UHGV virus genome: UHGV-0263858
Reading direction: 5' to 3' (one strand)
DNA from: a virus
Length of the DNA: 28,280 bases
How positions within the stretch are numbered: the first letter of the stretch is position 1; each line of letters begins with the position of its first letter. Below are positions 2,167-22,763 of the stretch, in pieces. Under the pieces are notes generated by a model, which was given only the letters and a program-made list of their open reading frames with translations, did not search any database and was not told where the DNA came from. The position numbers and the translations under genes are program-made.

Positions 2167-2244
2167 GGATGTGTATAGGGTGCCTTATCAGTCTTGCCCT
2201 GACAACCGATTGACGGGGGAATCTCTTCCCCCGTCGCGGTTTCC

Positions 2245-3054: not shown

Positions 3055-3094
3055 TTTACGTCACCTCACGCTTTACGTCACACCGTTTACGTGG
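3055..3094 (+). repeat. direct repeats TTTACGTCAC, TTTACGTCAC, TTTACGTGG at 3055, 3072 and 3086
   Basis: Read directly. An inverted copy CACGTAAA occurs at 2833-2840. Non-coding region just beyond the last late gene. Confidence 0.35.
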
Positions 3095-3146
3095 TGTGCG
3101 CATACAGCGCCAGAATGGCACGCAGAACGCATTAATCAGGTGGCAG

Positions 3147-3177
3147 ATATGAAAACGCACGACCGGAGCCGTGCGTT
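3147..3177 (-). terminator. intrinsic terminator closing the late operon
   Basis: Minus-strand hairpin AACGCACG / CGTGCGTT (8-bp stem, 3154-3161 with 3170-3177) followed by TTTTCAT, about 40 nt downstream of the stop at 3215. Confidence 0.55.
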
Positions 3178-3214
3178 GCGTGATGGGCGTTTATGGGGGT
3201 TTTATGCCCGGTGA

Positions 3215-6741: not shown

Positions 6742-8033
6742 GCAACCCTCACAAACAAAGAAACTAAGCCCCGGTTATAAAACTTAATATCCGGGCCGCC
6801 AGATAAAGCGACATATGTACCAGGCAGGGTATCCCTGTAGACAAATGACCTCGCAGCAGCACTAAATCCTGACGTGCGATACTCCGCTTCAAAGACCACC
6901 TGCCGGAGTCTTGAGCCTGACACGCCTTGTGCACGAAGTAACGTAACCTCACTGCTGCCATCGTCCGGTAGGTATGCAGCAAGAACCAGGCCTCCGGGGA
7001 ACGGAGGACGCTTTGATGTATTTTCTGTTGCATACAACAGTTGCATCAGGCGATTACGTGACCAGAACAACCGCGACCATGCTTCTGGCAGGTCTGACGG
7101 ACGCATGGATTTTTTAACCAGTACCTGATATTTCGCAGGACCTTCACCGAATCCCCCATCGTATTCTGCATCACCATGAAACGTTATCCACCGACGCGCT
7201 TCTGCTTCAATACCGGCAGAGTCAATTCCGTATCGTATGTCTATATCCACAAGTCCACGGAAATAAGGTTGCCCCATGTCATACGCAATGATGGGATTAT
7301 ACGAAGTGCTACTCCCTCCAGATTGTGTTACCGCGTAACGCCCGGGGGTGACTTCGAACACCCATTTCAGAAATTCGGCAGGGCCATTTTGGGCGCTGAA
7401 ATACACCACTTCCGACGAAGAGAACACATGCCCGTATCCGAACGCCCCCGGCAGAGCAAGACAACCTGCGGTGCGGTCGTAAATATTGCTCTGGACACCA
7501 AGCAAAGCGGCACTTTTCACCCCCAGATTGTCGCGGGATTCCTGCTGCGCCTCTTCCCCCTCTGCTGCAATCTCTGACAACCGGTTGGAGGTTCTCAGCA
7601 TTGATTTCAGTTCCGGGTAAATATCTACCTGCCAGCTCTGTGGAGGAACGGTAATTTGCGCAGCCTGAGCCACGCCCTGATAAGTAATCGTGAAATTCCT
7701 GACCAGTGACTCGCCAGCATGTTTCTGACGGACAGGGGTTTTTATTACGCCGCACAGTGTTCCGCTGGCCTGATGGATGAGGCAAATCCAGTCATAGCTG
7801 AATGCACAGTCATCAGGAACAACCGCGCTACACACAATATTGTTCGGGCTTAACTGGCCATAGGTCAGTTCATTCACGGTATATGTGATTTTTTCTTCCG
7901 GAACGGTATTATCTTCGCGCGTTGGTTCCCGCTCCATCAGGGCAAAAATAATAGTGTCAGGGCGTGCAGGTAAATTACTGGCTGTGCATTCAGCAACCCA
8001 CTTTTCAAATGCTTTCGTCAACAATGCGCTCAT
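6738..8033 (-). CDS. hypothetical virion protein (431 aa), possibly a second fibre/receptor-binding protein or a divergent sheath
   Basis: ATG at 8033, 6 nt after the tfa stop. Size fits a sheath, but no similarity to P2 FI is recognisable by eye. Confidence 0.55.
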   Translation of the reverse strand: MSALLTKAFEKWVAECTASNLPARPDTIIFALMEREPTREDNTVPEEKITYTVNELTYGQLSPNNIVCSAVVPDDCAFSYDWICLIHQASGTLCGVIKTPVRQKHAGESLVRNFTITYQGVAQAAQITVPPQSWQVDIYPELKSMLRTSNRLSEIAAEGEEAQQESRDNLGVKSAALLGVQSNIYDRTAGCLALPGAFGYGHVFSSSEVVYFSAQNGPAEFLKWVFEVTPGRYAVTQSGGSSTSYNPIIAYDMGQPYFRGLVDIDIRYGIDSAGIEAEARRWITFHGDAEYDGGFGEGPAKYQVLVKKSMRPSDLPEAWSRLFWSRNRLMQLLYATENTSKRPPFPGGLVLAAYLPDDGSSEVTLLRAQGVSGSRLRQVVFEAEYRTSGFSAAARSFVYRDTLPGTYVALSGGPDIKFYNRGLVSLFVRVA

Positions 8034-8039
8034 TACTTC

Positions 8040-8594
8040 TTAATTCTCGCTAATGTTCTGCGGTAATTCTGGCCATACAATTGCGGCATACGATGATTTA
8101 TCTGTAACCTGACTGAATGTCATCTCCCGTAACGTTTTTGTATAAATACGGCATGCTTTCAGTTTTTCCTTGTCTTCGTCGCTGATTAACCCCAGCAGCA
8201 GGTCTTTTTCCCATTCGCTGGTCATGATGCTAACCTGTTTTAACAGTGCATCACGCTCGTCTTCCGCTTTAAGTTTGTAGTCAAAAACAAATGCATCATT
8301 GCGGTAGAACCAGTAACCCGACGCCTCAATGCGACGATTGACGGTAATATCCGGTAGCTCAATCACGCTTTTATTTTCCGGGCAGATTGAGGTGATGTCT
8401 TTTCCAACCCAGACCACTTCGCCAGTTTCAACATAAATAACTTTCAGAGTGTCTGGCTGAAATTTTTCCTGGGCTTCGTGCCATTCCTGACCATCATCGG
8501 AGAACAGCCACAATAAAAATTTATGCTGTCGCGCCAGCTGGTATTGCTCAATTGTTTTAGGGTTTTGTGCCGTAAGATTTTTTAAGTGCATCAT
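8040..8594 (-). CDS. tail fibre assembly protein (P2 gpG / Tfa-like)
   Basis: 184 aa, ATG-ATG start, immediately downstream of the fibre gene. Tfa-like features (WFYRNDAFVFDY, C-terminal acidic helix). Confidence 0.7.
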   Translation of the reverse strand: MMHLKNLTAQNPKTIEQYQLARQHKFLLWLFSDDGQEWHEAQEKFQPDTLKVIYVETGEVVWVGKDITSICPENKSVIELPDITVNRRIEASGYWFYRNDAFVFDYKLKAEDERDALLKQVSIMTSEWEKDLLLGLISDEDKEKLKACRIYTKTLREMTFSQVTDKSSYAAIVWPELPQNISEN

Positions 8595-8596
8595 GA

Positions 8597-9814
8597 TTAC
8601 AAACTCGCTACATTTCGCCAGACGCCATTAATCAGAACCTGCACCGGGCGTGCATTGGCCCAGCCCACACTTTCACCGCCATCAACACCACTCAGTAAAT
8701 GACCTGATGGCGCATTTCCCCCGCGTCCAATACCAATGGCGCCTCCCAGACGCACATCCTGCACACCGCCTGTTTTGGTCTGATAGCGTGCATCAAAGTT
8801 TCCGTAGTCTGACGGTGTTACCCGCCCTGTAACGTTCACCGCCCGGTTGCTTTGTAACGCGCCATTCTGAAAACGGAATACATGCTGTCCATTGGCATAA
8901 ACATCCAGCAGGCCGTCACCATTCTGTTTAAAGCCAGTATCACTGTCACCAATTGCAATTGAGTTTCCGCCCAGCGCGTTCTGAACGCCGATACCCAGCG
9001 CACCATTGACCTGAGAACCGCCGCCAACAGACACTTTATGCGACATGGATATTTCACCCGTCCGCAGATTAATAGTGAACGGTCGAAGTGGACCAATATC
9101 GCCATTCTCGCCCTGACCTTCACTGGTAGGGATAAGGTGCAGGCACTCTTCCGAACGACGAAAAATCAGACCAAAGGCTTCGTTGAAAATCCTCAGCGCA
9201 TTAACACCACGGATTTTCAGTTCCCCGGTCATGGTGTCACCATCACGCTGAACGGCATTTTTTGCCTTGTCCACCGTAGGTTTTAATCCGAGGCTTTCAA
9301 CAGCCTCATCCTTGTCTTCCACATCCGAAAGATTCTTTTTTCGTTGCAGATAGCGTCTGTCTCCGATTTCCTGAGTAATAATGGCCCTGTCCGGATCAAC
9401 TTCCAGCACCACGTTTTGTGCGTGCGTCAGCCCAAGAACCAGCGTCAGAATAACTTCCTTGATAACGGAGTCCGTCTGGTCTGGTAAAAAGGTGTCCGGA
9501 TAACGTCCGTACGCGATAAGCGTACCTCTGTCGCTGATCATCCCCAGTTCACGAAGGGTTTTACCGGGGTATGATTTACAGTCAATCACAATATCCCCGC
9601 TGATGAAGCCCTCCTCCACCGCACCGTCGGAAAAGGGTTCCTGCCCGAATTCGCCGTACAACGATGTCATTGCTGCCATTTCATCCGGCGTGGATGGCAA
9701 TGCCCGCCCGCCCCCGTCACCAAGCAGAACATGCCGGACGGTCACGGTTTGCCCGTTCTGATATGCTGCTTCAATTTCTGCAGCGCCGGACGTTGTCAGA
9801 ATCAGTCCATTCAT
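8597..9814 (-). CDS. tail fibre protein (P2 gpH-like)
   Basis: 405 aa. N-terminus (LILTTSGAAEIEAA...VLLGDGGG) matches the conserved P2 H baseplate-attachment domain. ATGA overlap with the gpI-like gene. Confidence 0.8.
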   Translation of the reverse strand: MNGLILTTSGAAEIEAAYQNGQTVTVRHVLLGDGGGRALPSTPDEMAAMTSLYGEFGQEPFSDGAVEEGFISGDIVIDCKSYPGKTLRELGMISDRGTLIAYGRYPDTFLPDQTDSVIKEVILTLVLGLTHAQNVVLEVDPDRAIITQEIGDRRYLQRKKNLSDVEDKDEAVESLGLKPTVDKAKNAVQRDGDTMTGELKIRGVNALRIFNEAFGLIFRRSEECLHLIPTSEGQGENGDIGPLRPFTINLRTGEISMSHKVSVGGGSQVNGALGIGVQNALGGNSIAIGDSDTGFKQNGDGLLDVYANGQHVFRFQNGALQSNRAVNVTGRVTPSDYGNFDARYQTKTGGVQDVRLGGAIGIGRGGNAPSGHLLSGVDGGESVGWANARPVQVLINGVWRNVASL

Positions 9815-10401
9815 ACACCTGCCTCACTCTGCCCGCCTGTGGGCACTGTCTTTGTTGTCACACCGGTACTTCTGATTTTTTCTGTCGCCATCACATAGCC
9901 GTAACAAAATCCACGCCCTGTGCTGTTCCCGTAAACGTGAATACTGAACCAGCTGCGCAGATTTTTGGCACGGAGCACCGCATGCTTCAGATCCTGATGA
10001 TCATTCATCAGCACCGGTAAATCCTTCTGCTCCACGTTCAGACGAAAGGTATACGGCTCCCCGGGTGGGCTCTGCTCATACCACTCAACAATCTGCGACC
10101 GGAAGGGACTGTCAGCCAGCGATGCCATCAGCGCCGCTTTAGTCCCTCTGTGGCGGTGGATGTAAGCAGCACGTTTTATCGCAGACCTTTTTTCCGTCTC
10201 CGTCCAGTGTTCATTCCAGGTATCCACCGCCATTTCCCAGGCCAGCCATGGCAGCAATTCAGCAGGACATAAATCGGGATTTTTCACATAGCGGATCAGA
10301 CATACTGCGATTTCCGCCAGCATATCACCGGCGGTACTGTCCACCACCCGCTCTGCCCGGCTGGCGCTGACAGGAAGTATGCTTCTGATTTTGTCATTCA
10401 T
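9811..10401 (-). CDS. baseplate wedge protein (P2 gpI-like)
   Basis: 196 aa. Shares the motif CPAELLPWLAWEMAVDTWNEHW with P2 I (CPANLLPWLAWAFSVDRWDEKW). Confidence 0.8.
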   Translation of the reverse strand: MNDKIRSILPVSASRAERVVDSTAGDMLAEIAVCLIRYVKNPDLCPAELLPWLAWEMAVDTWNEHWTETEKRSAIKRAAYIHRHRGTKAALMASLADSPFRSQIVEWYEQSPPGEPYTFRLNVEQKDLPVLMNDHQDLKHAVLRAKNLRSWFSIHVYGNSTGRGFCYGYVMATEKIRSTGVTTKTVPTGGQSEAGV

Positions 10402-11308
10402 CGGTTGTCTCCACCTTGTTCAGCGTTACCTTACGGCACCACGGTGCCTGCCCCATCGCAGGAACGATATCACTGCCCGGAGAGGTCAGATTCACCGTAA
10501 TCACCCCGGTCTGGTGAAGGGCACCATCCATGCCAGAACGGGATGCCACCGAGCCAATCCGGTGGACGCTGTCAGTGTATGACTGCAGCGCCTTGCGGGC
10601 ATTTGCCATAACCAGTTCACCATCCAGTCCGTAGGGAATATGAATATCCGCCACCACATCGTAGGGAATAATTTCTGCCGTCCGGACACTGACAAAATCC
10701 GTCAGGGGACGGGTTTCATCATCACAGACTGATGCTGCCACCTTATCCAGCAGGGGTTGTGATGCAGTGCCATTTCCGGACCGGGATAACACATAAAGAA
10801 AAACACGCCCTTCCTGTGAATGCGTTTCCGGCCCGTAGGCTTTCACATCCAGCACATCAGGATCGGCACTCTGTGCAAAATAGTGATAGGCATTTTTCGC
10901 GCCTGCGGTGCTGAGTCGTGCCCATGACAACTGGATACGTTCGCGAAAAGCATCATCATCTTCATACACCGCAGGCGTGGGCGGGATAGTGCTGTCATCT
11001 GCCGGGGTAATCACCAGACGCTGTACCTGAAAATTCGCACCAATCTGATCCAGGTCGTTCCTTCGGGCGCTCGCAAGCAGTACACCCCGGACAGCATCAT
11101 TGACCTGCTGGCGCATCAGCGCCACCCGGAAAGCCAGCGCCTCTGCCCATTTATACGCGGGATCAGATTCCACCAGAGCCGAAAACAACGTATCCAGCTC
11201 CTGATACTTCGCCACTATCTGAGTGACCAGCACAGCGGTGTCCGGCACCTCCACCGCATCCGGTACCGGTATCGCGGACAGATCAATAATTGCCTGAGAC
11301 GTTGCCAA
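10394..11308 (-). CDS. baseplate assembly protein (P2 gpJ-like)
   Basis: 304 aa. Shares AIIDL near the start and the conserved ITPADDSTIPPTPAV block with P2 J. The first codon appears to be TTG with SD GGAGA; an alternative start is possible. Confidence 0.85.
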   Translation of the reverse strand: MATSQAIIDLSAIPVPDAVEVPDTAVLVTQIVAKYQELDTLFSALVESDPAYKWAEALAFRVALMRQQVNDAVRGVLLASARRNDLDQIGANFQVQRLVITPADDSTIPPTPAVYEDDDAFRERIQLSWARLSTAGAKNAYHYFAQSADPDVLDVKAYGPETHSQEGRVFLYVLSRSGNGTASQPLLDKVAASVCDDETRPLTDFVSVRTAEIIPYDVVADIHIPYGLDGELVMANARKALQSYTDSVHRIGSVASRSGMDGALHQTGVITVNLTSPGSDIVPAMGQAPWCRKVTLNKVETTDE

Positions 11309-11639
11309 TTTTTATCTCCTCGAGTCGAATCGTTTCCTGAGTTTCGTTGTTCACCCCGACAAGCGTCAGCCACGCGCTTCCTTCTCCTGTCCACGTCACT
11401 TCCACCCGCCGGAGAGTCAGACGGGGTTCCCAGCGTTCAAGGGCGGTTACCGTTTCACGAACAATTCTCACCCGCGTGAAATCATCCTGTGGGTTATCAA
11501 GCAGACTGAAAAGTCTGCTGCCGTATTCCCTGAGCAGGACCCGGCTGCCGACCGGTGTTGACAAAATATCAGTGACGGACTGGCGCAGATGTTCGTTACC
11601 GTGCAGATATCTGCCGGTGGCTGAATCAATACCAATCAT
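11283..11639 (-). CDS. baseplate protein (P2 gpW / T4 gp25-like)
   Basis: 118 aa. Motif SVTDILSTPVGSRVLLREYGS matches P2 W (SIGDILRTPVGSRVMRRDYGS). ATG at 11639 with SD GGAG. Confidence 0.8.
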   Translation of the reverse strand: MIGIDSATGRYLHGNEHLRQSVTDILSTPVGSRVLLREYGSRLFSLLDNPQDDFTRVRIVRETVTALERWEPRLTLRRVEVTWTGEGSAWLTLVGVNNETQETIRLEEIKIGNVSGNY

Positions 11640-11672
11640 GTTGTTTACTCCGGAAAAAGAACTGAAAGGAGA

Positions 11673-12296
11673 TTACATTTGCTGACCAGGCTGTCCGGTG
11701 CTGCCACCACTGTCGCCCCGGTGATTGTGACCGTTATAGACAATTCTGATTTGACTCATCGTTCCGTGATAATCAGAAACCTCACCACCGACCATCAGAT
11801 CCGCCTTAACCACCGCCTCAGCATTCATGGTTGCTTTACCCTGTACGGTCAGGGTATCTGTGATTTCTACCGGACCGTCCAGGGTTCCCCTGCCTGTAAT
11901 TTTATAGCTGCCGCCTTCAGCCAGCGTGATGGACAGAACATTAGCCTGACGGTCGTAACGGATTTCCGTTCCGGTATCAAACAAAATAACATGTTCGTAT
12001 TCACTGCCCTCAGGGACAGGAATGGCGTCAATATTGGGCCCCGGATACACCCGACCGTTACGCAGATCGCCCGCCTCCGATATCACTGTAACGGCATCTC
12101 CGGGGGACGGATAATTACTGACCTGCATGTAGCGCCCGGACTGTACCTGAATCCAGGGCAACGGAGGCGAAAGCACATCCCCGATATCCACCCGAACCAT
12201 CACCGGGCTACCCGGGATCACCTCGTCCACCACGCCGCGACGGACCATGTCCGCCACCCTGCGGCGTAACTCTGCCACTTCATCCGCCAGACTCAT
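11673..12296 (-). CDS. baseplate spike protein (P2 gpV-like)
   Basis: Start chosen at ATG 12296 (MSLADEV, SD GGAGGG) rather than the ORF-track extension to 12590. C-terminal YNGHNHRGDSGGSTG matches the P2 V apex motif (HTHKHPGDSGGTTG). Confidence 0.8.
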   Translation of the reverse strand: MSLADEVAELRRRVADMVRRGVVDEVIPGSPVMVRVDIGDVLSPPLPWIQVQSGRYMQVSNYPSPGDAVTVISEAGDLRNGRVYPGPNIDAIPVPEGSEYEHVILFDTGTEIRYDRQANVLSITLAEGGSYKITGRGTLDGPVEITDTLTVQGKATMNAEAVVKADLMVGGEVSDYHGTMSQIRIVYNGHNHRGDSGGSTGQPGQQM

Positions 12297-12843
12297 CACC
12301 GGTGCCCTCCGATTTCCAGATAAGACGATAATCCTGCTCATGTCTCTTGCCGGTTTCCGGTACTTTACCCAGCCAGACTTCCTGTAACGGCGCACCTGCC
12401 GGAACCGCAAACGGATCTTCGCCGACCGGAATGTCCTGTTCAAAAGAGACACGGAAAACGATGTAGTCGTCCAGCAGCCGGTCGAAGGTATCCACCTCAG
12501 CATCGATAAAAACCGCCGGATCAGCGTTATCCAGCCCGAACGTGGCTCCCTCAATCCAGTCAGATAAATCCATCGCGAGACAACGGGCAAAAATCTGCGG
12601 TTTTGGCACGTTTTCCGTCTTCCCGGCCCGGTCTGTCACCACAAACAGATCACATTTCAGCGTGACCCGCGTTTGCCCGTCGGCAAAATGAGCCTTGTCC
12701 CAGCCCGGTACATCCACAAACACAGCAGGCGTCACCAGTTGCGTCACTTTTTCCGGGTACTCATCGGCATCTTCCACCCAGGGAATTTGTTTCAGACTGT
12801 CAATCACCGCCTGATGCCAGGCGCCCATCATCAATGGCTCCAT
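12280..12843 (-). CDS. tail completion / tail terminator-like protein (lambda gpU-like or P2 R/S-like, uncertain)
   Basis: 187 aa, ATGA overlap with the upstream gene. Weak resemblance to lambda U (AVIDSL versus AVLDAL, acidic FVDV segment). Its position between head-completion and baseplate genes supports a tail-completion role. Confidence 0.45.
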   Translation of the reverse strand: MEPLMMGAWHQAVIDSLKQIPWVEDADEYPEKVTQLVTPAVFVDVPGWDKAHFADGQTRVTLKCDLFVVTDRAGKTENVPKPQIFARCLAMDLSDWIEGATFGLDNADPAVFIDAEVDTFDRLLDDYIVFRVSFEQDIPVGEDPFAVPAGAPLQEVWLGKVPETGKRHEQDYRLIWKSEGTGDESGG

Positions 12844-13565
12844 CACTCCAGCCCCTTAAATACCCGGAATTTCAGTTCATGCTCAAAATTTTTCAGGATC
12901 AGTACTTCCGCATCCGGAAAAACAAAATCCTCTATACGGTTCAGCATGGCTTCATAAATATCAATTTCCGCTTCACGCACCCTCCGTCGTCCGGATGTCT
13001 GTCGGATCAGTATCGTTTTCCTTTTTGATATACGTCCGTTACGATTTTCCGCTTCGAACTGGTTGATAAAGGCATCATCCGTTGACCAGGTGCTGACAGG
13101 CAGGGATTCCCCGGCAGGTTTAAAACGGATCTCCCGTGCCTTCCTGCGGTGAGAAGCTGGTGCAAAACGCCCCCGCTCATCGCGCAACTGATGGCGTTCG
13201 CCGCGTCGTCCCCCACTGATGCGTCCGCGCAGATCGCGTACTTTGATGGCGTTCAGACCGAACCATACCTTCGCCTCATCAAACTCATCACCGTTACGAC
13301 GAATGATAAAATTATGCAGAACACGCTTTTTGATCATTTTCTGACTGCGTGGGGCAACCTGTTTTTTAAACTCTGCCATAGCCTTCATCCGCAGTGCAGA
13401 CGCGGCTCTTTTCAGCGCCACGCCCCAGGCTTTACGGATCTGACTTTTTGACCCACCCAGTTTAGCGATAATTTTCAGCACCTCATCTTCATCAATATCG
13501 ACGACGAGGTTTCGTGCCAGCCGTCGCTGCCGGGCACTGCTTCGTTCATGCTCTCTGACTGCCAT
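12843..13565 (-). CDS. virion morphogenesis / tail completion protein (basic; lambda gpZ-like or P2 R/S-like, uncertain)
   Basis: ATG at 13565 (MAVREHERSS). Basic, Arg/Lys-rich protein immediately after the FII homologue, as for lambda Z. Confidence 0.45.
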   Translation of the reverse strand: MAVREHERSSARQRRLARNLVVDIDEDEVLKIIAKLGGSKSQIRKAWGVALKRAASALRMKAMAEFKKQVAPRSQKMIKKRVLHNFIIRRNGDEFDEAKVWFGLNAIKVRDLRGRISGGRRGERHQLRDERGRFAPASHRRKAREIRFKPAGESLPVSTWSTDDAFINQFEAENRNGRISKRKTILIRQTSGRRRVREAEIDIYEAMLNRIEDFVFPDAEVLILKNFEHELKFRVFKGLE

Positions 13566-13950
13566 AACGTTTACTCGGTCGTTCCGGTGCAGCAGGTGTA
13601 TTTCTCCCGGGCTCTCCACGCGCAAGGGTGATGGTAATCACCCCCTGACCCGCAGTGCCTGACTCATCCCAGCCGGGATCGACTACCTGATAGGGCTCGC
13701 CGTGGATCATGACCCTGTCATATTTTTTCAGACCGGCGGCCCATGCGCTCCGGGTAAATAACACGGGTGCAGTATCACGAATTTCGCCGCTGCCAGTGTT
13801 CATCCCGGTGTTATCTGCCGGGGCATCAAAAACGGCACGGATTTTTCTTTCCGTGCCGCCCGGATATATGCTGATTTCCGTCCCCATCGTATCCAGGATG
13901 ATGTCATCCGCATCACTCATGGCCTGATCGAACAGATTATCGAACATCAT
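13546..13950 (-). CDS. head-tail connector protein (lambda gpFII-like)
   Basis: MMFDNLFDQAMSDADDII matches lambda FII (MADFDNLFDAAIARADETI). Start overlaps the FI stop. Confidence 0.8.
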   Translation of the reverse strand: MMFDNLFDQAMSDADDIILDTMGTEISIYPGGTERKIRAVFDAPADNTGMNTGSGEIRDTAPVLFTRSAWAAGLKKYDRVMIHGEPYQVVDPGWDESGTAGQGVITITLARGEPGRNTPAAPERPSKRYGSQRA

Positions 13951-14315
13951 CACTCCCGGATTTTTTCTGCCAGACCGTCTGCCAGCAACGCGGGAACTGT
14001 GGCTTCATTAACCAGCACAACACTGGAGGCCCGGGCAAACATCAACATTTTTCCCGTCACAGCATCACAGGCTGGCATATGCGCCGTTTTCAGCATACGC
14101 ACCCGGGCGAGTCCCTGCTCAGAATGCATTCCGTCGCCGGATGCATCGTTGCCCACCTCCTCCTTCCCCGTCTCCTCCCCATCGAATCCGGCGGCCTCCT
14201 CCTCCCATTCCGCCAGACGCTGCTCGAGATCGGCTTTTGAACCTGAAATATCTGCTTCACGCCCCAGAATCACTGCCAGTTCCTGCAAACGTTCAGTCAT
14301 CTGCTCTTTTGTCAT
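13950..14315 (-). CDS. DNA packaging/head assembly protein (lambda gpFI-like)
   Basis: Start at ATG 14315 (MTKEQMTERLQELAV), similar to lambda FI (MTKDELIARLRSLGEQL). The ORF-track extension to 14447 would run through the upstream terminator. Confidence 0.75.
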   Translation of the reverse strand: MTKEQMTERLQELAVILGREADISGSKADLEQRLAEWEEEAAGFDGEETGKEEVGNDASGDGMHSEQGLARVRMLKTAHMPACDAVTGKMLMFARASSVVLVNEATVPALLADGLAEKIRE

Positions 14316-14330
14316 CACATCTCTCCCGTG

Positions 14331-14360
14331 CGCTAAAGAAAAAGGCGGGAATATCCCGCC
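14331..14360 (-). terminator. intrinsic terminator (attenuator) after the major capsid gene
   Basis: Minus-strand hairpin GGCGGGA-TAT-TCCCGCC followed by TTTTTCTTT, between the E-like stop (14366) and the FI-like start (14315). Confidence 0.55.
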
Positions 14361-14365
14361 CCGTC

Positions 14366-15394
14366 TTATTTCACCTGAACCACCACAAACGCATCCGGAT
14401 CCGGCAGCACCATCAACGGCGCAGACTGCGTCATGGTATATTCGCAACCAGGATCCCCCACTTCCTCCCAGTGTTTCGGATAACGAATCGCAGAGGTGAT
14501 CCCTTCACTCAGTGCCTGATTATCCTGAATGGCACCATAACAACGGACGCCTTCCGCCTGAGTGTTCCCCAGAATCAGTGTACCTTCCGGCAGATAACGC
14601 TGTTCATCCCCGTTTTCGTCAACATACGTTGTCTTCGCCACCACAATTGCCAGATCGCCGTAATGGCCTTTAAAGGAAACCACGGAGCCCAGGTCTTTCA
14701 GTGCCGTTTCCAGCTCAGATTTGGAGCCACGGCGGGTATCCAGTTTTTCACGGAACAGTTTAAAACCGTTCAGCATACGCCAGACTGTGCCGTCCATAAT
14801 CGCGATATTGATGGTGCCGGAAGCGAAATCGCAGTACGCATCCAGATCATGCGTCGGATCGAAAGTGTCAGCATTCTGCTGTGACCATTCGCGTCCGCCA
14901 GCCTGCGTAATGTTATTGGTGTCAGAACGTCCAAAATCCACTTCCACCGTCTCAAACTGCTCGCCGCTCATGGTGTATTTACCCTGCAGAACGGCACTGA
15001 CCGCCTGCATTTCTTCCACCTGCACAATCGCCTGCTCTTCCTGTTTCAGGTTGTCCGTCAGAATACGCAGACGGCGGTAAGCCGGGTCATTAAGGCGGGC
15101 CGGATCTTCTCCCGGAAGACGTTCCACTGCCTGCTGATAATCAAAGCGGTGTTTTGGTTTTACATAACCGGGACGTAACACGCGGGTTTCACCACCACGG
15201 CTGCGCAGCACTTTGCCTGACACCACCGGAGACACATACGCCGCAACCGGTGTTTTGCCGGTAATTTTATCCAGCATGACTTCCTGAGTATGGAAAGTGA
15301 TCGTGCGACGAAAGAACAACTCCAGAAACAGCGCACGAAATTTCACTTTCTGCTCGGTGTACCCGAGTAACTGACGCGTGGTAAATAACCCCAT
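14366..15394 (-). CDS. major capsid protein (lambda gpE-like)
   Basis: 342 aa with extensive identity to lambda E across its length (for example VSPVVSGKVLRSRGG, PGYVKPKH, QVEEMQAVSAVLQGKYTM, KLDTRRGSKSELETA, IQSAPLM). SD AAGGA upstream. Confidence 0.92.
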   Translation of the reverse strand: MGLFTTRQLLGYTEQKVKFRALFLELFFRRTITFHTQEVMLDKITGKTPVAAYVSPVVSGKVLRSRGGETRVLRPGYVKPKHRFDYQQAVERLPGEDPARLNDPAYRRLRILTDNLKQEEQAIVQVEEMQAVSAVLQGKYTMSGEQFETVEVDFGRSDTNNITQAGGREWSQQNADTFDPTHDLDAYCDFASGTINIAIMDGTVWRMLNGFKLFREKLDTRRGSKSELETALKDLGSVVSFKGHYGDLAIVVAKTTYVDENGDEQRYLPEGTLILGNTQAEGVRCYGAIQDNQALSEGITSAIRYPKHWEEVGDPGCEYTMTQSAPLMVLPDPDAFVVVQVK

Positions 15395-15462
15395 AATTTA
15401 TATTCCTTCAGAAACACAAACGGGCCGCATCGCGACCCGTTTTTCAGTTAATCACTTCACCA

Positions 15463-15798
15463 TCAGGCGTGGCTGATGGCACTTCCCACAAATGCGTTGG
15501 CTTTTTTCACCGCATCCACAGAGTCAGGCCAGACCAGCGACTCAGTGGCAAACGTACCGCTTTTGTAGTACGTCAGCGTGGGTTCTGTTCCGGTAAGCGC
15601 CAGAGCCAGCACCCCCACTGCCGTTCCGGCTTTCTGACCATCCCATGCCACCAGTTTTCCGGTGGCGTCATCCACCATCAGTGGCGTCAGTGCAGGTGTG
15701 GCAGCACTGATACCACTGGTGGCGGTTGCGGTATGCGCCGGATCGCTTCCGGCAAAAATGCGCACATCTGCACGCTTTTCCGTGGTGGTTTTAATCAT
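15463..15798 (-). CDS. head decoration protein (lambda gpD-like)
   Basis: 111 aa. SDPAHTATA...KLVAWDG...YYKSGTF matches lambda D. SD CAGGAG upstream. Confidence 0.88.
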   Translation of the reverse strand: MIKTTTEKRADVRIFAGSDPAHTATATSGISAATPALTPLMVDDATGKLVAWDGQKAGTAVGVLALALTGTEPTLTYYKSGTFATESLVWPDSVDAVKKANAFVGSAISHA

Positions 15799-15837
15799 TT
15801 TTTCAGTCTCCTGATTTATCTGAATTCCGGATACCGC

Positions 15838-17316
15838 TTACGGCATACTCATCAGCAGGTCTTCTTCCCCGCGCCCGGCAGTTCCGCCACCGGAAACCGC
15901 ACTGGCAGCATGCTGTGCCATAAAGCGATCAAAAAGTGTTTCCTGTGACGGTTGCGATGCCGCCGGCGCGGCTGCCAGCAGCGTTTTCGCCTGCGCCACC
16001 GTCATTCCTGGCTGTTCTGTCAGTGCCTGTGCAAGTTGTTCGCGCCCTTTCGCCTCCGGCAGCGCCATAATCTGATCGCCGACACTTGCAGAACCCGCAA
16101 CCGGTGCCGCCGCCAGTAACGTTTTGGCCTGGTCAACGGTCATTCCCGGCTGTTCAGCCAGCGCCTGCGCGAGTTGTTCACGCCCTTTTGCTTCCGGCAA
16201 CGCCATAATCTGATCACCCGTGCTGTCAGTACCGGCAACCGGCGCAGCTGCAAGCAACGTTTTCGCCTGCTCAACCGTCATTCCTGGCTGACCTGCCAGC
16301 ATTTGCGCCAGTTGCTCGCGCCCTTTCGCCTCCTGACAATTCAGGATCCCCATCACGCGCTGATTTTCCTGGACCACCGCTTCAGCAACGGTCAGATTTT
16401 TAACTGTCATCGTTTCCTCCTGTGTAACAGATTCATTCAGTGCAGAAACCATCACTTCAACGGCATCTGCAGCATTAATCAGTTGATCAGCCAGGCCTGC
16501 ATCAATGCCTGCCTGACCGTCATAAACGGCAGCCTCGGTATTCATCACCGCCTCTGAACTCAGCCCCGTATAAAGCGCCACCTTGTCGACAAACATCCGG
16601 CGGGCCTCATCAATACGGCGCTGAAAATCTGCACGCACACCTGCCGGCAATGCCTGAATACTGTTGCCGTCAACCTTGTGCTGCCCGGAGTAAATCAGCG
16701 TGATGTCCACCCCTTCCTGTGCCAGTTGTTTCTCGTAACTGGCGTGCGCCATCATCACGCCAATCGAACCAATTTTTGCCGTCTGCGTGACCAGCCGACG
16801 GGTACAGGCTGCCGCCAGCAACATGGCGGCTGAACAGGCCATGTCATTACACAGCGCCCACACGGGCTTCTGTTCCCGCAGACGGTAAATCATGTCAGCA
16901 CAGTCAAACGCCCCGGCAGCCTGACCGCCCGGGCTGTCGATATCCAGCAAAATGCCGCGCACATCCGGATCATTCACCGCCATCTGAAGGCGGGCCGTCA
17001 GGCCGTCATAACCAGTCATGCCGGAGTAAGGCCGCAGGGTACCCAGTTTATGCACCAGCGTGCCGCTCACCGGCAGAATGGCGATGCCATTCTTCACCTG
17101 GTAACTCTTTGCCGGACGCTGACCGCCCGCCATATAGTCAGTCACAGCCAGTTGCATTCCATCAGCATCAAGCTGAACAGCCTGCTGAGGAACGGCAAGG
17201 CTGCCGGCCCCTATCTCTTTACCCAGCGCGCAAAAGAAAACCCGCGCATAGGCGGGTTCCAGTAAAAGCGGTTCATTAAATGCCATGGCGGCAATATGCG
17301 ATAAATTACGACGCAT
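15838..17316 (-). CDS. head maturation protease with in-frame C-terminal scaffold domain (lambda gpC/Nu3-like, S49 family)
   Basis: 492 aa. N-terminus IAAMAFNEPLLLEPAYARVFFCAL and the core (PVSGTLV, PYSGMTGY, GAFDCADMI, IGVMMAH, LIYSG, HKVDGN) match lambda C. The C-terminal part contains a tandemly triplicated 46-aa unit. Confidence 0.88.
   Translation of the reverse strand: MRRNLSHIAAMAFNEPLLLEPAYARVFFCALGKEIGAGSLAVPQQAVQLDADGMQLAVTDYMAGGQRPAKSYQVKNGIAILPVSGTLVHKLGTLRPYSGMTGYDGLTARLQMAVNDPDVRGILLDIDSPGGQAAGAFDCADMIYRLREQKPVWALCNDMACSAAMLLAAACTRRLVTQTAKIGSIGVMMAHASYEKQLAQEGVDITLIYSGQHKVDGNSIQALPAGVRADFQRRIDEARRMFVDKVALYTGLSSEAVMNTEAAVYDGQAGIDAGLADQLINAADAVEVMVSALNESVTQEETMTVKNLTVAEAVVQENQRVMGILNCQEAKGREQLAQMLAGQPGMTVEQAKTLLAAAPVAGTDSTGDQIMALPEAKGREQLAQALAEQPGMTVDQAKTLLAAAPVAGSASVGDQIMALPEAKGREQLAQALTEQPGMTVAQAKTLLAAAPAASQPSQETLFDRFMAQHAASAVSGGGTAGRGEEDLLMSMP
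15964..16333. repeat. three tandem in-frame copies of a 138-bp unit inside the gpC-like gene
   Basis: DNA landmark CGTTTTCG/CGTTTTGG recurs at 15983, 16121 and 16259 (period 138). Encoded units are EAKGREQLAQ(M/A)L(A/T)(G/E)QPGMTV(E/D/A)QAKTLLAAAP...; lambda has one copy (EAHGREEQARVLAETPGMTVKTARRILAAAP). Confidence 0.85.
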
Positions 17317-18877
17317 CGCCTTTTTCTCCCGTTGTCTGTCGGATCTGCTGCTGAAACGTGTCCTTTATCCAGATGGGGCGGGGAAGACCCGCTGCCTGTC
17401 GCTCCTGGCTTTCACGCAGTTGCTGGCGGAAAATCTCCTGATAGTCATCGCCCATCAGGGCCAGCTCTTTCTCGTACGTGCTCAGGCCACCTTCAATACG
17501 CATCACCGCTTCCTGCACTTCCTTAAGGCCATCAATCGCCATGCGACCGGCACCAATCCACTCGGCACGACACCATCCGGAACGGGCCTCCCAGAATGAA
17601 AAACGGGATTTCGGCGGGCGGATCACACCGCGAATAAGCGCTTCCTCCAGCCAGCAGGCAAACATCTGTGATGCCAGCCGGCTGGCCACAAATTTTCGTT
17701 TGCCCATAAAATACCGCCACGACTCATTGGCGGATGCCCTGGCACTGGAATAACTGACCTGTGAATAATCACGGGAAAGCTGTTCATAGGACACCCCCAG
17801 TCCGGCAGCAATGTAACGTAACAGCGCCTTTTCCAGTTCAGAGAAACCATTATCTGCATTCTGCGCTGTCTGCAGATTCAGTGAATCCCCCGGATAAAGA
17901 TGTGGAATACGGACCCCGCCCAGCTTTACCGTATTGGTGGCGTAATAACGCGCGTAGCCTTTCATGATGGTGTTCAGGGGATTTTTACCGCCATCTCCCA
18001 CCCCGGCGATATATTCAAATGCTTTTTCCGAATCCAGCGTGGATTCAATCGTCGCGGCATACATCGCCCGCACCACCGCCGACTGCAGTTGCGTGGCCTG
18101 CAGTGTGTCGAGCATCTTGAGACGCTCCATGACAGAATAAAACTGGTTGGCCCCGCGCGTCTGCCCGTCCTCCTGCGGCTGAAACACATGGATCATTCCC
18201 GGTCGCCCGGAGGGCAGCGCCGCCGCAATCCGCGTCCAGTTGCTGACACCGTAACCTGGCCAGTCATCTTCCTGAACATGGTAGGCCAGTGCTTTTCCGT
18301 ACCGGTTGATTTCCACCCCGGCACGCATAAAACGATCGCCGGTACCATAACCGGGTGTACTGACACGTTTCGGGCTGATGGTCTTGAATTTCGTCCGGAA
18401 TAATGACGTGGATTCCGTATCCCATACGGGCTGGACAAAAATTTCACCGTTAAATGTATGAACGCCCACCCCTTCACGAATAAATTCGGTAAACGAGCGA
18501 CGCCCCTCCACATCCATCGAACCAAACACCGGATCGCAGAATTCCATCCACGCTGCCTCAACATCTTCAATAAAGACATGTGAATCGGCTTCCGACATCC
18601 CCAGCCAGCGCCAGTTGGGCCGGTAACTCAGACGAAACATGTGTCCGACGATATGGTCTTTATGAATTTCAACGGCGTTTGCGGCAATACCGTTATTGCG
18701 GACCAGATCATCCGCACGGGCGTTACCCAGCTGAATGGAAGGTAAGAGCGCCACGTCGGCACTTTCCGGTGCAGGCAGCCATTCCGCAAGCTGTCCGCCA
18801 AATCCGGTACCCCCTCCGGAATACCCCATACTCTGCCGCAGTGGCTGCCCGTGAAGATCCACCAGTTCCCCGTTCAC
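17306..18877 (-). CDS. portal protein (lambda gpB-like)
   Basis: 523 aa with extensive identity to lambda B (GGGTGFGGQL, ARADDLVRNNG, FNGEIFVQ, YSVMERLKMLDTLQ, LGVSYEQLSRDY, RMAIDGLKEVQEAVM). The start appears to be GTG overlapping the W-like stop. Confidence 0.92.
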   Translation of the reverse strand: MNGELVDLHGQPLRQSMGYSGGGTGFGGQLAEWLPAPESADVALLPSIQLGNARADDLVRNNGIAANAVEIHKDHIVGHMFRLSYRPNWRWLGMSEADSHVFIEDVEAAWMEFCDPVFGSMDVEGRRSFTEFIREGVGVHTFNGEIFVQPVWDTESTSLFRTKFKTISPKRVSTPGYGTGDRFMRAGVEINRYGKALAYHVQEDDWPGYGVSNWTRIAAALPSGRPGMIHVFQPQEDGQTRGANQFYSVMERLKMLDTLQATQLQSAVVRAMYAATIESTLDSEKAFEYIAGVGDGGKNPLNTIMKGYARYYATNTVKLGGVRIPHLYPGDSLNLQTAQNADNGFSELEKALLRYIAAGLGVSYEQLSRDYSQVSYSSARASANESWRYFMGKRKFVASRLASQMFACWLEEALIRGVIRPPKSRFSFWEARSGWCRAEWIGAGRMAIDGLKEVQEAVMRIEGGLSTYEKELALMGDDYQEIFRQQLRESQERQAAGLPRPIWIKDTFQQQIRQTTGEKGDAS

Positions 18878-19083
18878 AGCCCCACTCCTGCCGGGCCGCG
18901 ACGCCGTCCGGATACACCCAGCGCACTTTCCAGCTCTTCAATATACTGACGCAGTTCACCAATCGTCGCCCGCGAATACTGAACCTGACGCCCGTCCTTG
19001 CTGACGGAAACCACAGCACGTCCGATCATCAGTTCATGTAATGCCCGGCGGGCATCACAAAGCATTTCATGCGTATAAACCAT
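18874..19083 (-). CDS. head-tail joining protein (lambda gpW-like)
   Basis: 69 aa. ARRALHELM...KDGRQVQY...RRRGPAG matches lambda W. SD GGAGG upstream. Confidence 0.85.
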   Translation of the reverse strand: MVYTHEMLCDARRALHELMIGRAVVSVSKDGRQVQYSRATIGELRQYIEELESALGVSGRRRGPAGVGL

Positions 19084-19086
19084 TCT

Positions 19087-21003
19087 TTATCCTCCACTCA
19101 GTGCAGCCGCGATTTCTTCCAGACTCATCTCATCGTCGTCCTGCTCATCTCTTCTGGCACGGGCCAGAGCTTCAAGATCCAGCTGCCACCGCTGAACTGA
19201 AATACGCAGGGCAGCATAGGCATATACCAGGCAGTCGAGGGCTTCGTTGCGTCGCCCTTTTTTATCCCACAGCAGTTTCACCCTGCCATTAACCACCTTC
19301 TCCACCAGCTCTTCCGCCACGATCTGACGCGCCTCTTCTTCCGAAAAAATGTCGGGGTTATCCGGAAAACGGAAGGTGTACGGGGCGGCTTCACTGGCAG
19401 AGACCACTGGCAGGGCAAAACGGGCGTACAGCATTTCCTTGACGGTATCGGAGCCCACCTCACACAAAAACACACCACGCTGGTTGCGCTTTTTGGGCAT
19501 GGTGATCACCGGCTTGCCGTACACCGATGCCCCTTTTATGGGAAGCACAAAAAAAGTGCCGTGTTTCCTTGAACGCTGATACACAATGTCCTGGTCGATA
19601 CCACCGGTATCCCAGCAGACACGGGAAATGGAAATTTCAGTACCGTCAGCATGACGATATTTTTTCCGGATCACCGTATCAACACGTTTAAGGGTGTCCT
19701 CGTCTTCCGGTCGCCCCATGATAATTTGCTTATCAATCAGAAAGGCTTCTTCGCCGGGAGCCCAGCCCCAGACATAAATTTCATAGCGATCTTTCTGGGA
19801 GTCGATCCCGGCAGTCAGGTAAACCACCCGCAGGGGAACCTGCGCGCCATAGTGGCAGACCTTTTCCAGTAACAACTCAAAGCTCAGTTTTTCTGCCACA
19901 GCCTCTTCATAGGGCTCCCCGAGCGTGGTGTTAATAAACGTCTTGACGCCGTTCGGGTCCTTCAGCGCATCCAGCCAGTCGTAGACAATCTGCACCCAGG
20001 TGGTGAATGGACTGTACGCCGTCCAGATGTGGTACGAAATTGAGCGCGGTGGCGGTATCTCCTCATCACCGGCGCTGTAAAATGTCAGGCCATCACGCGT
20101 CCACATCCCGGTATTGTCACAAATCCAGCGTCCGTCGGTCTGGTCAAGTTCCGACTGCCGGATCACACAGCCATTATGTTCACACAGGTAATACACCGTT
20201 TCCGGTTTACCCTTCTCCCATTTCAGGCCAGACGGCGTCGCATCATCGCCAAACTTCAGATACTGGGCCTCCCCGCAATGAGGGCAAGGGACATAAAACC
20301 GCATGAAATGCGCAGATTCATTCGCGGCTTTCTCAATCTGGCAGGAACCTTTGATTTTTGGCGTTGAGCCACGTATGGATTTAGGCCATACCGAGCCTTC
20401 GATACGTTTATCACCAAGCAGCGTCGGCGAGCCTTCTTTTTCCACATCCGGTTCAAACGAGGAGAGTTCGTCATAGCAGACCACATCCACAGATTTTTCA
20501 CGGTAGTTTTTAGCTGCGGCACCGCCCAGGCACCAGAACCCCACACCGGAGGAAAAACGCTTCAGGGTGAGTGTATTATCGCGGTGTTTTCTTCCGAACC
20601 ATGGAGCCAGCTCCAGCAATGCAGGGACATCCCTGATCGTTGGCTCAACATGAGATTTCATGAAATCTTCTGCCGCAGAATCTGTTGGCTGAAAAAGCAG
20701 ACTGTTACGGGATTTATGCTCAATAAAATAAGCCTCCACCCCCAACAGCATTTTGGTGTAACCAACGCGCGCCGATTTAATCAGATTAACGGTGCGGATC
20801 CGGTCATTTCCCATGCTGTTCATAATGGCAACCTGAAACGGCAGGGTTTCCCATTGTCCGGGAGTGTATGAAGATTCTTTCGGCAGATAATAATGTTGAT
20901 CAGCCCACTGAACCGTCGTCAGTGGAACCGGAATATTGAGAGATAAAAGCCCTGTAGCTATCGCACCGGCTGCATTAGCTGCCTTCTGTGCGTCTGAAAT
21001 CAT
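19087..21003 (-). CDS. terminase large subunit (lambda gpA-like)
   Basis: Identity to lambda A along the whole length ([25 protein letters not shown](T/S)[111 protein letters not shown]). Start set at ATG 21003 (SD AGGTGG); the ORF track extends to 21045. Confidence 0.93.
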
Positions 21004-21523
21004 CAATCCACCTGCCCACGTTTTCACCGGCGTTAGCTGCAACATTGGAGGCTTTCGCGATTTCAGTTTTCACCGCATCAAGGTGTGACGGTGAAATATC
21101 CGGATATTTACGCTGTAATGTCAGCGGCACACGTACAAGTATCCCCGAAATCTCCTGTGCCACACGTTGCAGAATGAAGGTAAACAATTCCGTTTCCAGC
21201 ACCAGCCCTTCTTCACGGGCATTTTTCAGCTCCTGTGCGTCAGCCTGTGCTTTGGTGAGCCGGTAGCGTTCATAGTCAATGGTGCCGGGTTGTAAATCTG
21301 ATTCTGCAGCCGCACGCAAATCTTCCAGTTCTTTGCGGAGCTTTTCGTTTTCGATATCAGTTTCTCTCTGCGCGTACCACTGAATTGCCATCGCGGTATC
21401 AAACACCGATTCAACACCCTTGCTACCTCCGGAGACGCAAGATAGCCCCTGAGACTGCCAGCGTTCAATCGTTCGCGGATCCACGTTGAAAATTTCAGCA
21501 AGTTTCTTTTTGTTAACTTTCAC
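20975..21523 (-). CDS. terminase small subunit (lambda gpNu1-like)
   Basis: [25 protein letters not shown]...[48 protein letters not shown] matches lambda Nu1. Start is probably GTG at 21523; the ORF track begins at TTG 21541. Confidence 0.85.
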
Positions 21524-21547
21524 AATACATTTCTCTATCAAATACAG

Positions 21548-21602
21548 GGTCCGACATGAAAACGCTTAAAATGCCCTTTTTCGGGTGTTTTCATGTCGGA
21601 CC
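21548..21602. repeat. 16-bp perfect inverted repeat (GGTCCGACATGAAAAC ... GTTTTCATGTCGGACC) with 23-nt spacer, just upstream of Nu1
   Basis: Read directly; followed by TTTTACT on the plus strand. It lies where a cos/terminase-binding region would be expected, but cosN itself is not identified. Confidence 0.4.
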
Positions 21603-21884
21603 TTTTACTGATGTGATATCAGAAAAAACAAATAGTTATGCGCGAGAAGTACCGACATGCTTTTTCCTGAAAAATTTTCATAAATAGCGCGTTTTTGCGC
21701 GTGCTATGACCCCCGGTGTTTCAGATTTCAGAAAGGACCCGCACAAGTGAGAGCATTTATCATTAACATTTACAGATAAGATGACGCACGTCATTGAAAC
21801 ACCATTCAGTCCTATACCGGCAGCATCCGTTGTTGCACTCCGTAACTCTGCTACTAAGGTTAAAAGCATGGCCATCTTTTGCCA

Positions 21885-21926
21885 CCGGCAAATCTTCAAT
21901 GGATTTCCCCTGCCGGTTTTTTATTT
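21885..21926 (+). terminator. plus-strand intrinsic terminator-like hairpin (CCGGCA ... TGCCGG then T6)
   Basis: Stem 21885-21890 with 21911-21916, then TTTTTTATTTTCG. There is no convincing plus-strand CDS upstream, so it may end a small RNA or antisense transcript. Confidence 0.35.
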
Positions 21927-22107
21927 TCGTCGATGCGTAACATTGCATTCACATCAAGAGCAGCTATTGTCATTAGTATGTTGCATCAATGCATGGGTGG
22001 TATTGGCGGTCTTCGCCGGCCGGTTCTGTGTAGCTGCTCCCTGTGACCGGTTTTTTATTTCTCACATTACAGCATCCCCTCAGAGTGAAGGGCTGCTGTA
22101 ATGTCTG

Positions 22108-22407
22108 TTACTCAGTAACTACCGCACCTTCCGGTAATTCCATACCGGCAAATACCGGACAACCAGGATGACGATCAGCTTCTGTTGCTTCCAGCATTGA
22201 CTCACCAAACCACTCCGTCGTGGCACGACCATCAGCTGCTTTGTAGTGGATCAAGTACTGGTTTTCGCCATCCGCATACTGCGCACGGGCTTTAACCTCA
22301 CCCCATTCATCACTGATGCGCATCTCCACCAGTTGAGACAACTCAAACTTAAACGGAGCAGCATCAGCACCAATTACAATCGGTTTGTTTTCTGTTGTTT
22401 CCATCAT
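22108..22407 (-). CDS. hypothetical acidic protein (99 aa)
   Basis: ATG-ATG start at 22407 with SD CAGGAG. Followed by a 10-bp inverted repeat (CATTACAGCA / TGCTGTAATG, 22065-22103). Family not recognised. Confidence 0.55.
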   Translation of the reverse strand: MMETTENKPIVIGADAAPFKFELSQLVEMRISDEWGEVKARAQYADGENQYLIHYKAADGRATTEWFGESMLEATEADRHPGCPVFAGMELPEGAVVTE

Positions 22408-22492
22408 CGTCTCCTGATATCTAATCCCGCCGCCGCACCGGGCGGTGGCGCACCCTTCATTTTTCAGCAAAATATTCTGCTCTTACAGACGA

Positions 22493-22675
22493 TCAGTTCT
22501 GCACACACCGTCGAACGCCATCAATAAGCTGACAGACCTGAGACGCGGTATCGAAAAGCTGGCGCGCCTTATCCAGGCTGACGCATCCCACCAATAAAAA
22601 AGGCACCAGTATCGCTACCAGTGCCCATTTCGCCGCCACTCGCGGTATTCTGTGTGTCCAGTGTTTTCGGCTCAT
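22493..22675 (-). CDS. small lipoprotein (60 aa; signal peptide with lipobox L-V-G-C)
   Basis: MSRKHWTHRIPRVAAKWALVAILVPFLLVGCVS... The mature part of about 30 aa has two further Cys and is not Pro-rich, unlike Rz1-type o-spanins. ATG lies 1 nt after the upstream ORF stop. Confidence 0.5.
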   Translation of the reverse strand: MSRKHWTHRIPRVAAKWALVAILVPFLLVGCVSLDKARQLFDTASQVCQLIDGVRRCVQN

Positions 22676-22676
22676 G

Positions 22677-22763
22677 TCACCACCAACGCACAGCCCAAAT
22701 CAGAACAGCGACCGCCACAAGGCGGATTGCAAAGGCCGTTGCCCGAATAAAATCAGCACTCAT
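22677..22763 (-). CDS. putative 28-aa hydrophobic peptide
   Basis: MSADFIRATAFAIRLVAVAVLIWAVRWW. The ATG overlaps the stop of the upstream ORF (ATGA). Below the ORF-track size cutoff and could be non-coding. Confidence 0.3.
   Translation of the reverse strand: MSADFIRATAFAIRLVAVAVLIWAVRWW

Follow-up and report, generated by a model that had tools for sequence, protein, structure and literature searches.

The closest described counterparts of the locus analysed here are the gpC/Nu3 protease-scaffold genes of phage lambda and genes 5/6 of phage N15. Contacts listed for lambda Nu3 comprise Nu3-Nu3, Nu3-E, Nu3-C and Nu3-B, of which Nu3-E comes from yeast two-hybrid analysis (PMC3224144). The mechanism of lambda Nu3 is still poorly defined, its contacts being known mainly through genetics and two-hybrid data, and no Nu3 structure was found in this analysis. 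A gene of this kind lies at positions 15838-17316, on the minus strand, of UHGV virus genome UHGV-0263858, a stretch of 28,280 nucleotides (nt) that is called the window throughout; the gene belongs to an E. coli prophage. Its scaffold region contains three in-frame tandem copies of a 138-bp unit that lambda-type proteins carry once. The array is an ordinary trait of its protein family, with labile copy number, and it leaves the current picture of phage head assembly unchanged. It is likely to be an old, selected set of three modules whose number changes readily, which is carried by a predicted nested scaffold protein as well as by the protease and for which a protein-contact function is suggested.

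Lambda, N15 and the window share the gene order W, B, C/Nu3, D, E, FI, FII. The S49 protein of the window is 54% identical to lambda-type gpC, and the two types have in common aligned Ser and Lys residues, an internal Shine-Dalgarno (SD) sequence and ATG, the module itself and the C-terminal tail. They differ in layout: lambda and N15 carry one module after a spacer about 35 amino acids (aa) longer, whereas the window has three modules and a short spacer.

Two annotated proteins resemble that of the window in having three modules at the same positions. These are STM2605 of Gifsy-1 ('prohead protease; lambda gpC homolog', 498 aa) and the 'Nu3' protein of Escherichia phage PhiR12_2_star (501 aa), which are 62-64% identical overall to the window gpC homologue. 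Their own modules are 50-60% identical to one another, whereas those of the window clade are 87-97% identical and mostly number four. A still closer match is the S49 peptidase of STEC309 (WP_096095873.1, 538 aa, four units). Its first 320 aa are identical to those of the window protein, and the two genes differ only by one single-nucleotide polymorphism outside the array and one 138-nt gap, the extra unit of STEC309.

The repeat array and its host protein

The open reading frame (ORF) that holds the array and the parts of its product are as follows.

15838-17316, minus strand: gpC homologue, S49 prohead protease fused to a scaffold region, 492 aa (ORF, Pfam PF01343, phrog_53, identity to lambda-type gpC)
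16432-17316, minus strand: protease part, about aa 1-295, with conserved Ser162 and Lys214 (invariance, alignment to lambda-type gpC)
16333-16368, minus strand: lead-in helix of unit 1, ENQRVMGILNCQ, counterpart of the GDQIMALP that precedes units 2 and 3 (sequence; model helix 310-325)
16195-16332, minus strand: unit 1, aa 329-374, EAKGREQLAQMLAGQPGMTVEQAKTLLAAAP plus linker VAGTDSTGDQIMALP (hybrid of STEC309 units 1 and 2)
16057-16194, minus strand: unit 2, aa 375-420 (identical to STEC309 unit 3 at 138 of 138 nt)
15919-16056, minus strand: unit 3, aa 421-466, with the conserved core aa 421-451 at 15964-16056, then unique tail (identical to STEC309 unit 4 at 138 of 138 nt)
15841-15963, minus strand: unique C-terminal tail, AASQPSQETLFDRFM...LLMSMP, homologous to the lambda Nu3 C-terminus (second BLASTP alignment segment)

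A direct-repeat search finds three copies of 138 nt at 15963-16376, spaced 138/138, of which two are 79% and 65% identical to the reference copy. At lag 138 the sequence matches itself with an identity of 0.64, whereas 2000 codon shuffles give 0.30 +/- 0.025 (z = 13). These results bear out the in-frame repeat of 3 x 138 bp that an earlier note on this DNA had described. The coordinates given in that note, 15964-16333, are accurate and take in everything from the start of unit 1 through the core of unit 3, with the strand (minus) left unstated. Tandem Repeats Finder reported no repeat in 15000-17500, because the copies are too diverged.

Common to all three units is a 31-aa core, EAKGREQLAQxLxxQPGMTVxQAKTLLAAAP. 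Units 1 and 2 continue from this core into a linker (VAGTDSTG or VAGSASVG) and then DQIMALP; unit 3 passes into the unique tail, where F462, M466 and P492 are invariant across 41 homologues. The copies had been called near-identical, which is apt for the protein cores (27-29 of 31 residues identical, or 87-94%) and wrong for their DNA (78-84%). Nor do they differ at only a few codons, as had been thought: units 1 and 2 agree at 108 of 138 nt, and of their 46 codons 25 differ, in 19 cases synonymously and in six non-synonymously. Identity to unit 3 is lower (89 of 138 nt for unit 1 and 84 of 138 for unit 2) because unit 3 diverges past residue 31.

The 492-aa ORF matches PF01343 (S49, SppA/ClpP-like) with E = 2.4e-33 and 115.7 bits, the Pfam cut-off being 24.9, and the head maturation protease family phrog_53 with E = 1.6e-205. 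SppA-domain models score below their own cut-offs, as expected for the phage branch. In proteases of this type, a conserved nucleophile serine and a general-base lysine have catalytic roles, and Ser166 of lambda gpC is reportedly catalytic. Ser162 and Lys214 of the window protein align with lambda Ser166 and Lys218 and are invariant across the same 41 homologues. The gene has the portal gene on one side and the genes for the decoration and major capsid proteins on the other, as in lambda. By homology, then, the ORF is a lambda-type gpC/Nu3 protease-scaffold protein.

Lambda-type gpC has the unit once, as NSRIMGILNCEEAHGREEQARVLAETPGMTVKTARRILAAAP. This one segment is matched by two different window units, at 51% and 44% identity (E = 3e-20 and 5e-15, BLASTP). 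Together with the S49 domain match and the overall identity to lambda-type gpC, this agrees with the earlier placement of the units in the Nu3-like part of a gpC homologue and with their derivation from a segment that is single-copy in lambda C/Nu3. As judged from the alignments, the module present in the array in three tandem copies is the best conserved of the lambda-type scaffold. This module comprises about 36-46 aa and is described by the consensus I-[LM]-x-[LC]-[PE]-EAKGRE-x-LA-xx-LA-xx-PGM-[ST]-V-xx-A-[KR]-xx-LA-[AS]-AP. There is no model of it in Pfam or NCBIfam, and weak matches to DUF732, T2SSK, the HU N-terminus and ribosomal bL12 (PDB search) are at chance level. No description of this repeat architecture was found in the literature searched; the architecture itself is abundant in sequence databases.

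Age and distribution of the module

Non-synonymous divergence (dN) between the 31-codon unit cores is 0.04-0.09 and synonymous divergence (dS) is 0.5-1.8, giving dN/dS ratios of 0.02-0.17. This combination of low dN and high dS indicates that the copies are old and that the protein has been under purifying selection. In Gifsy-1, PhiR12_2_star, P0057 and other proteins, each unit is nearest to the unit at the same position in other proteins (67-82% identity), and units within one protein are 49-62% identical. Because unit positions are orthologous and units have diverged within each protein, the triplication predates the divergence of these phages. The comparisons thus show a three-copy state that is old, selected and the commonest among the closest relatives, not a recent expansion.

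Units were counted in the 120 best representatives of 90%-identity clusters, together with the window protein and four reference proteins. Three units were found in 78 proteins and four in 42, with five units in three proteins, two units in one and a single unit in two. Proteins with three or four units come from E. coli, E. marmotae, E. albertii, Shigella, Salmonella, Citrobacter, Cronobacter, Edwardsiella and Trabulsiella, among other sources. A scan of one genome per species gave three units at 5 loci and one unit at 33, many of the one-unit loci being lambda itself.

The distant reach of the module was surveyed by searching a single 42-aa unit against 1.84 billion representatives. The motif is mostly present in single copy near the C-terminus of S49 fusions. 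Some of these, the distant fusions P0138, P0140, P0143, P0168 and P0186, have very different protease domains and long spacers rich in Ala, Pro and acidic residues. Two copies occur in the small stand-alone proteins P0132 and P0137. Four candidates with 4-6 'stretches' in the representatives search (P0133, P0147, P0173, P0180) were discarded as ankyrin-like or other unrelated repeats. The distribution across distant S49 fusions implies that the unit is a conserved scaffold core that was multiplied in some lineages. One short helical motif is thus the conserved scaffold core of very distant S49 protease-scaffold proteins, and a large enterobacterial group carries it in two to five tandem copies with essentially the same capsid protein.

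Several records in these searches have unusual structures or sources. In P0043, P0090, P0092 and P0102, the gpC frame runs from, or from just past, a repeat unit into baseplate-V-like or tail-fibre-like sequence; such frames are either misassemblies or fusions made by deletion in degraded prophages. Larger internal duplications are present in P0044, P0045, P0046 and P0047. The loci L025-L034 have gpC genes that match the query as lambda-type records do (54%, residues 3-371) and lie on low-coverage contigs, four of which are about 48.4-48.5 kb long. Their assemblies are assigned to Neobacillus, Chromatium, Kitasatospora, Shewanella, Pseudomonas, Oceanobacillus, Leeuwenhoekiella and an Akkermansia metagenome-assembled genome. 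These contigs are probably lambda DNA contamination or spike-in.

Copy-number change and the origin of the window allele

Most proteins of the window clade have four units and are 538 aa long. Besides the window and STEC309, other near-identical proteins differ in unit number: P0054 (two units) and P0050 (three units) are 100% identical over their first 320 aa, and P0005 (five units) is 99.7% identical over the same region to four-unit proteins. The nearest relatives of the three-unit proteins P0038 and P0042 are in each case four-unit proteins. Copy number therefore shifts by whole 138-bp units, with two to five observed among the aligned proteins. For annotation, this means that length differences in multiples of 46 aa among prophage proteins called 'S49 family peptidase' are real repeat polymorphism.

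Units 2 and 3 of the window equal units 3 and 4 of STEC309, as listed above. Window unit 1 has the base of STEC309 unit 1 at nine informative sites and the base of unit 2 at the tenth (pattern GGGCGAAAA, then T). The switch point falls within an 81-nt tract that is identical in STEC309 units 1 and 2. Since window unit 1 is a hybrid of these two units, the window allele is most simply read as a 138-bp contraction of the four-unit allele, in which one unit would have been lost by crossover or slippage inside the tract. The reverse history, from three units to four, requires extra changes and a crossover between poorly matching units. Contrary to the expansion proposed in the earlier note, the last event in the window lineage thus looks like the loss of one unit.

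Two further junction types occur among three-unit alleles (L065, L069), and the three types overall suggest recurrent copy-number events. Units are also partly homogenised within the window clade. STEC309 unit 2 is mosaic, an 81-nt part of it being identical to unit 1, and lineage-specific substitutions are common to the units of one protein in P0042, P0039 and P0007. In its copy-number changes, hybrid units and homogenisation, the array evolves, by the sequence record, like a tandem-repeat protein subject to unequal recombination or slippage. It would be speculative to ascribe the many gains and losses of units to selection, for example by capsid-remodelling satellites, rather than to drift.

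The exact three-unit protein of 492 aa is found on 18 contigs from independent projects and assemblers, two of which are Logan contigs of about 13 kb. The identical three-unit gene is also present in prophages with complete head and contractile-tail modules, and PhiR12_2_star, which has three units, was deposited as a phage with E. coli C as host.

A predicted nested Nu3-like scaffold

Upstream of the array, the gpC frame contains a predicted internal translation start.

16416-16421, minus strand: Shine-Dalgarno sequence AGGAGG, 5 nt before an internal in-frame ATG (CAGGAGG-N5-ATG conserved in five phages)
15838-16410, minus strand: predicted nested Nu3-like scaffold gene, Met303 to stop, 190 aa (conserved SD-ATG; N15 annotation)

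The arrangement CAGGAGG-N5-ATG is present at the same position in the window, STEC309, Gifsy-1, PhiR12_2_star and the lambda-type phage HK629, where the ATG encodes Met309. The N15 record annotates the equivalent internal start as that of a 'head scaffolding protein' of 137 aa. Because the SD-ATG is conserved and N15 has this annotation, a nested Nu3-like protein of 190 aa, beginning at the ATG at 16410, is very likely to be made. Such a protein would be made up of a lead of 25 aa, then the three units, then a tail of 26 aa. Since the internal start precedes the array, both the full-length protease and the predicted nested scaffold would carry it.

Measured from the conserved start, the scaffold is 131 aa in lambda, 190 aa in the window and 236 aa in STEC309 with its four units; by unit count, five-unit nested forms would be about 275 aa. 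The scaffold domain is thus longer than that of lambda, as the earlier note had anticipated. A contrary idea, that scaffold length is conserved (201 aa in HK629 and lambda records against 190 aa), was dropped because the SD-ATG and N15 put the lambda start at Met309, giving 131 aa. Public records conflict over the Nu3 start: HK629 has a product of 201 aa (L004, 3700-4305, following the older lambda annotation), whereas N15 has one of 137 aa (L059, 1216-1629). The conserved SD supports the shorter lambda-type Nu3 product. The nested scaffold gene is unannotated in all three- and four-unit prophage records examined.

Structure and possible function of the module

AlphaFold models of the full-length protein and of the scaffold only agree on three short helices per unit (xxIMAL, REQLAQAL, VDQAKTLLAA) joined by low-confidence linkers. 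Within the helical blocks, pLDDT is about 73-82 in the full-length model and about 62-77 in the scaffold-only model. The latter has a pTM of 0.28 and gives no confident arrangement of units relative to one another. The linkers between units are of the Ala/Gly/Ser/Thr type.

In other phages, capsid contact is made by small helical elements of otherwise flexible scaffolds (PMC11565965; PMC3185693). Given this precedent and the relations reported for lambda Nu3, the unit is a candidate multivalent scaffold contact module. It would be the protein-contact element of the scaffold, acting in self-association, in attachment to the portal or to the gpE shell on its inner side, or in both. With tandem copies on flexible linkers, scaffold and protease chains would each be multivalent. 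The array would not be expected in the virion, since the protease would later degrade the scaffold. A tentative proposal, which may well prove wrong, is that lambda-type scaffolds make contact through the 46-aa unit as their elementary module, its copy number (1 to 5) setting the valency of each scaffold or protease chain. If it is true, natural alleles that differ by whole units are a ready series for studying how Nu3 directs gpE shell assembly and portal incorporation. The module is a concrete target for mutagenesis and binding studies, with a natural allelic series at hand.

The coat-binding helix-loop-helix elements of the P22, phi29 and 80alpha scaffolds are similar in being small helical parts of a flexible scaffold that contact the capsid protein, a likeness that is a functional analogy only. 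A structure comparison gave no significant structural similarity of the module to these elements, and there is no sequence similarity either. The scaffolds of these three phages differ in having a single, C-terminal element and no protease fusion, and that of P22 is recycled and not degraded.

The longer array had also been proposed to alter capsid size, and nothing supports this. The major capsid protein of the window is collinear with lambda gpE, to which it is 59% identical, and it is 84% identical to that of PhiR12_2_star. Phage records with three units are lambda-sized (48.5 kb for Gifsy-1 and 52.2 kb for PhiR12_2_star, compared with 47.3 kb for HK629).

Alternative explanations

A different account must be considered for how the array arose and for whether the copy number in the window is genuine. 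The earlier note had called the expansion 'recent or maintained'. The second term fits the low dN/dS; the first would require a recent tandem triplication of a lambda-like single-copy segment, which is very improbable. The close similarity of the protein cores is what such an event would leave behind, but synonymous divergence is near saturation (dS up to 1.8) and the core DNA has diverged to match. Positionally orthologous sets of three units are also present in Gifsy-1, PhiR12_2_star and proteins from Edwardsiella and Trabulsiella, and the nearest relatives carry four units, not one. An assembler could not have created extra copies, given that no exact repeat within the window gene is longer than 18 nt. 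Artefactual loss is another matter. The source could have a four-unit allele of the STEC309 type, with a short-read assembler having skipped the loop formed by the 81-nt repeat, an error that would yield precisely the sequence of the window. The window junction lies inside that repeat, the exact four-unit protein is on 247 contigs compared with 11 for the three-unit protein, and a suspicious join is present in the tail-fibre region of the window. The exact three-unit allele is, moreover, in none of the top 30 matches among 5,426 complete E. coli genomes. Assembly collapse is nonetheless improbable, though not negligible, in view of the independent projects and assemblers that recovered the three-unit protein. 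Logan assembly uses k = 31, at which an 81-nt repeat should break contigs instead of being skipped. The three-unit alleles with other junctions (L065, L069) share just 8-16 nt there, which k-mer collapse would not turn into a contraction, and the same one-unit difference recurs in other near-identical pairs.

Two further accounts concern what the array does. It might be a mere spacer, a low-complexity linker of immaterial sequence and neutrally drifting copy number, given that near-identical proteins carry two to five copies without other visible change. Lambda Nu3 is also said to be largely disordered. The selective constraint on the cores argues against this account, as do the retention of the motif in proteins with very distant protease domains and the helices predicted at moderate confidence in two models (pLDDT about 62-82). 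The spacer account is right for the linkers VAGTDSTG and VAGSASVG only, and for the array as a whole it is distinctly improbable. That the repeats act as regulatory DNA or RNA structure, or encode a product on the opposite strand, is hardly credible. A plus-strand ORF of 127 aa at 16174-16557 could be cited in its favour, but this is only an antisense shadow in a mechanical ORF list and is otherwise unsupported; neither its conservation nor that of RNA pairing was seen across relatives, though the point was not followed further. Conservation between units is concentrated at non-synonymous positions of the minus strand, and third positions are nearly randomised.

Several points weigh against our preferred account, an old, selected array of three modules with labile copy number and a contact function. 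Every carrier of the exact three-unit protein is a draft or short-read contig. The direction of change, from four units to three, depends on a single informative site plus parsimony. The window prophage has no sheath and tube genes, so its copy may not be under current selection. The nested scaffold depends on the predicted start at Met303. Model confidence is moderate and the relative placement of the units is left unpredicted. The suggested contact function derives from conservation and general knowledge of scaffolds; for the capsid tether, the unique C-terminal tail is just as good a candidate.

Neighbouring genes and prophage context

The head genes next to the gpC homologue are listed below.

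17306-18877, minus strand: portal protein, gpB type, which adjoins and overlaps the gpC start upstream (ORF; PF05136 on identical loci)
15463-15798, minus strand: head decoration protein, gpD type (PF02924 on identical loci)
14366-15394, minus strand: major capsid protein, gpE type, 342 aa (PF03864; comparison with lambda-type gpE and PhiR12_2_star)

These genes overlap tightly, by 11 nt between the portal stop and the gpC start (17306-17316) and by 4 nt between the gpW stop and the portal start (18874-18877). The portal start is called variously, giving 507 or 523 aa, among otherwise identical loci.

Positions 8756-22738 of the window are 99% identical to L011, a prophage with a lambda-type head and a P2-type contractile tail. 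Positions 1-8756 are 99.9% identical to the end of a different, P2-like prophage that lies beside flk in E. coli STEC316. The junction of the two parts is at about 7493-8756, within tail-fibre genes, and could be either a contig chimera or a real recombinant in those genes. Close relatives (L011, L062-L066) have about 8.5 kb that the window is missing, with the genes for the sheath, tube, tape-measure and gpD proteins. The idea that the three-unit allele is confined to a decaying prophage was rejected, identical alleles being present in prophages with complete tails.

L011 and the window also carry different accessory genes. Between its lysis and late-regulation regions, L011 has subtilase-cytotoxin-like genes at 33041-34951, encoding an S8 peptidase and two AB5 binding subunits. 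No window sequence matches these toxin genes; a DNA methylase gene (PF01555) is present at 25835-26878 of the window. At 2245-2385, beside a DUF4875 gene (1312-2052), the window has a sequence that is annotated as a Hok/Gef family toxin gene in the identical STEC316 sequence.

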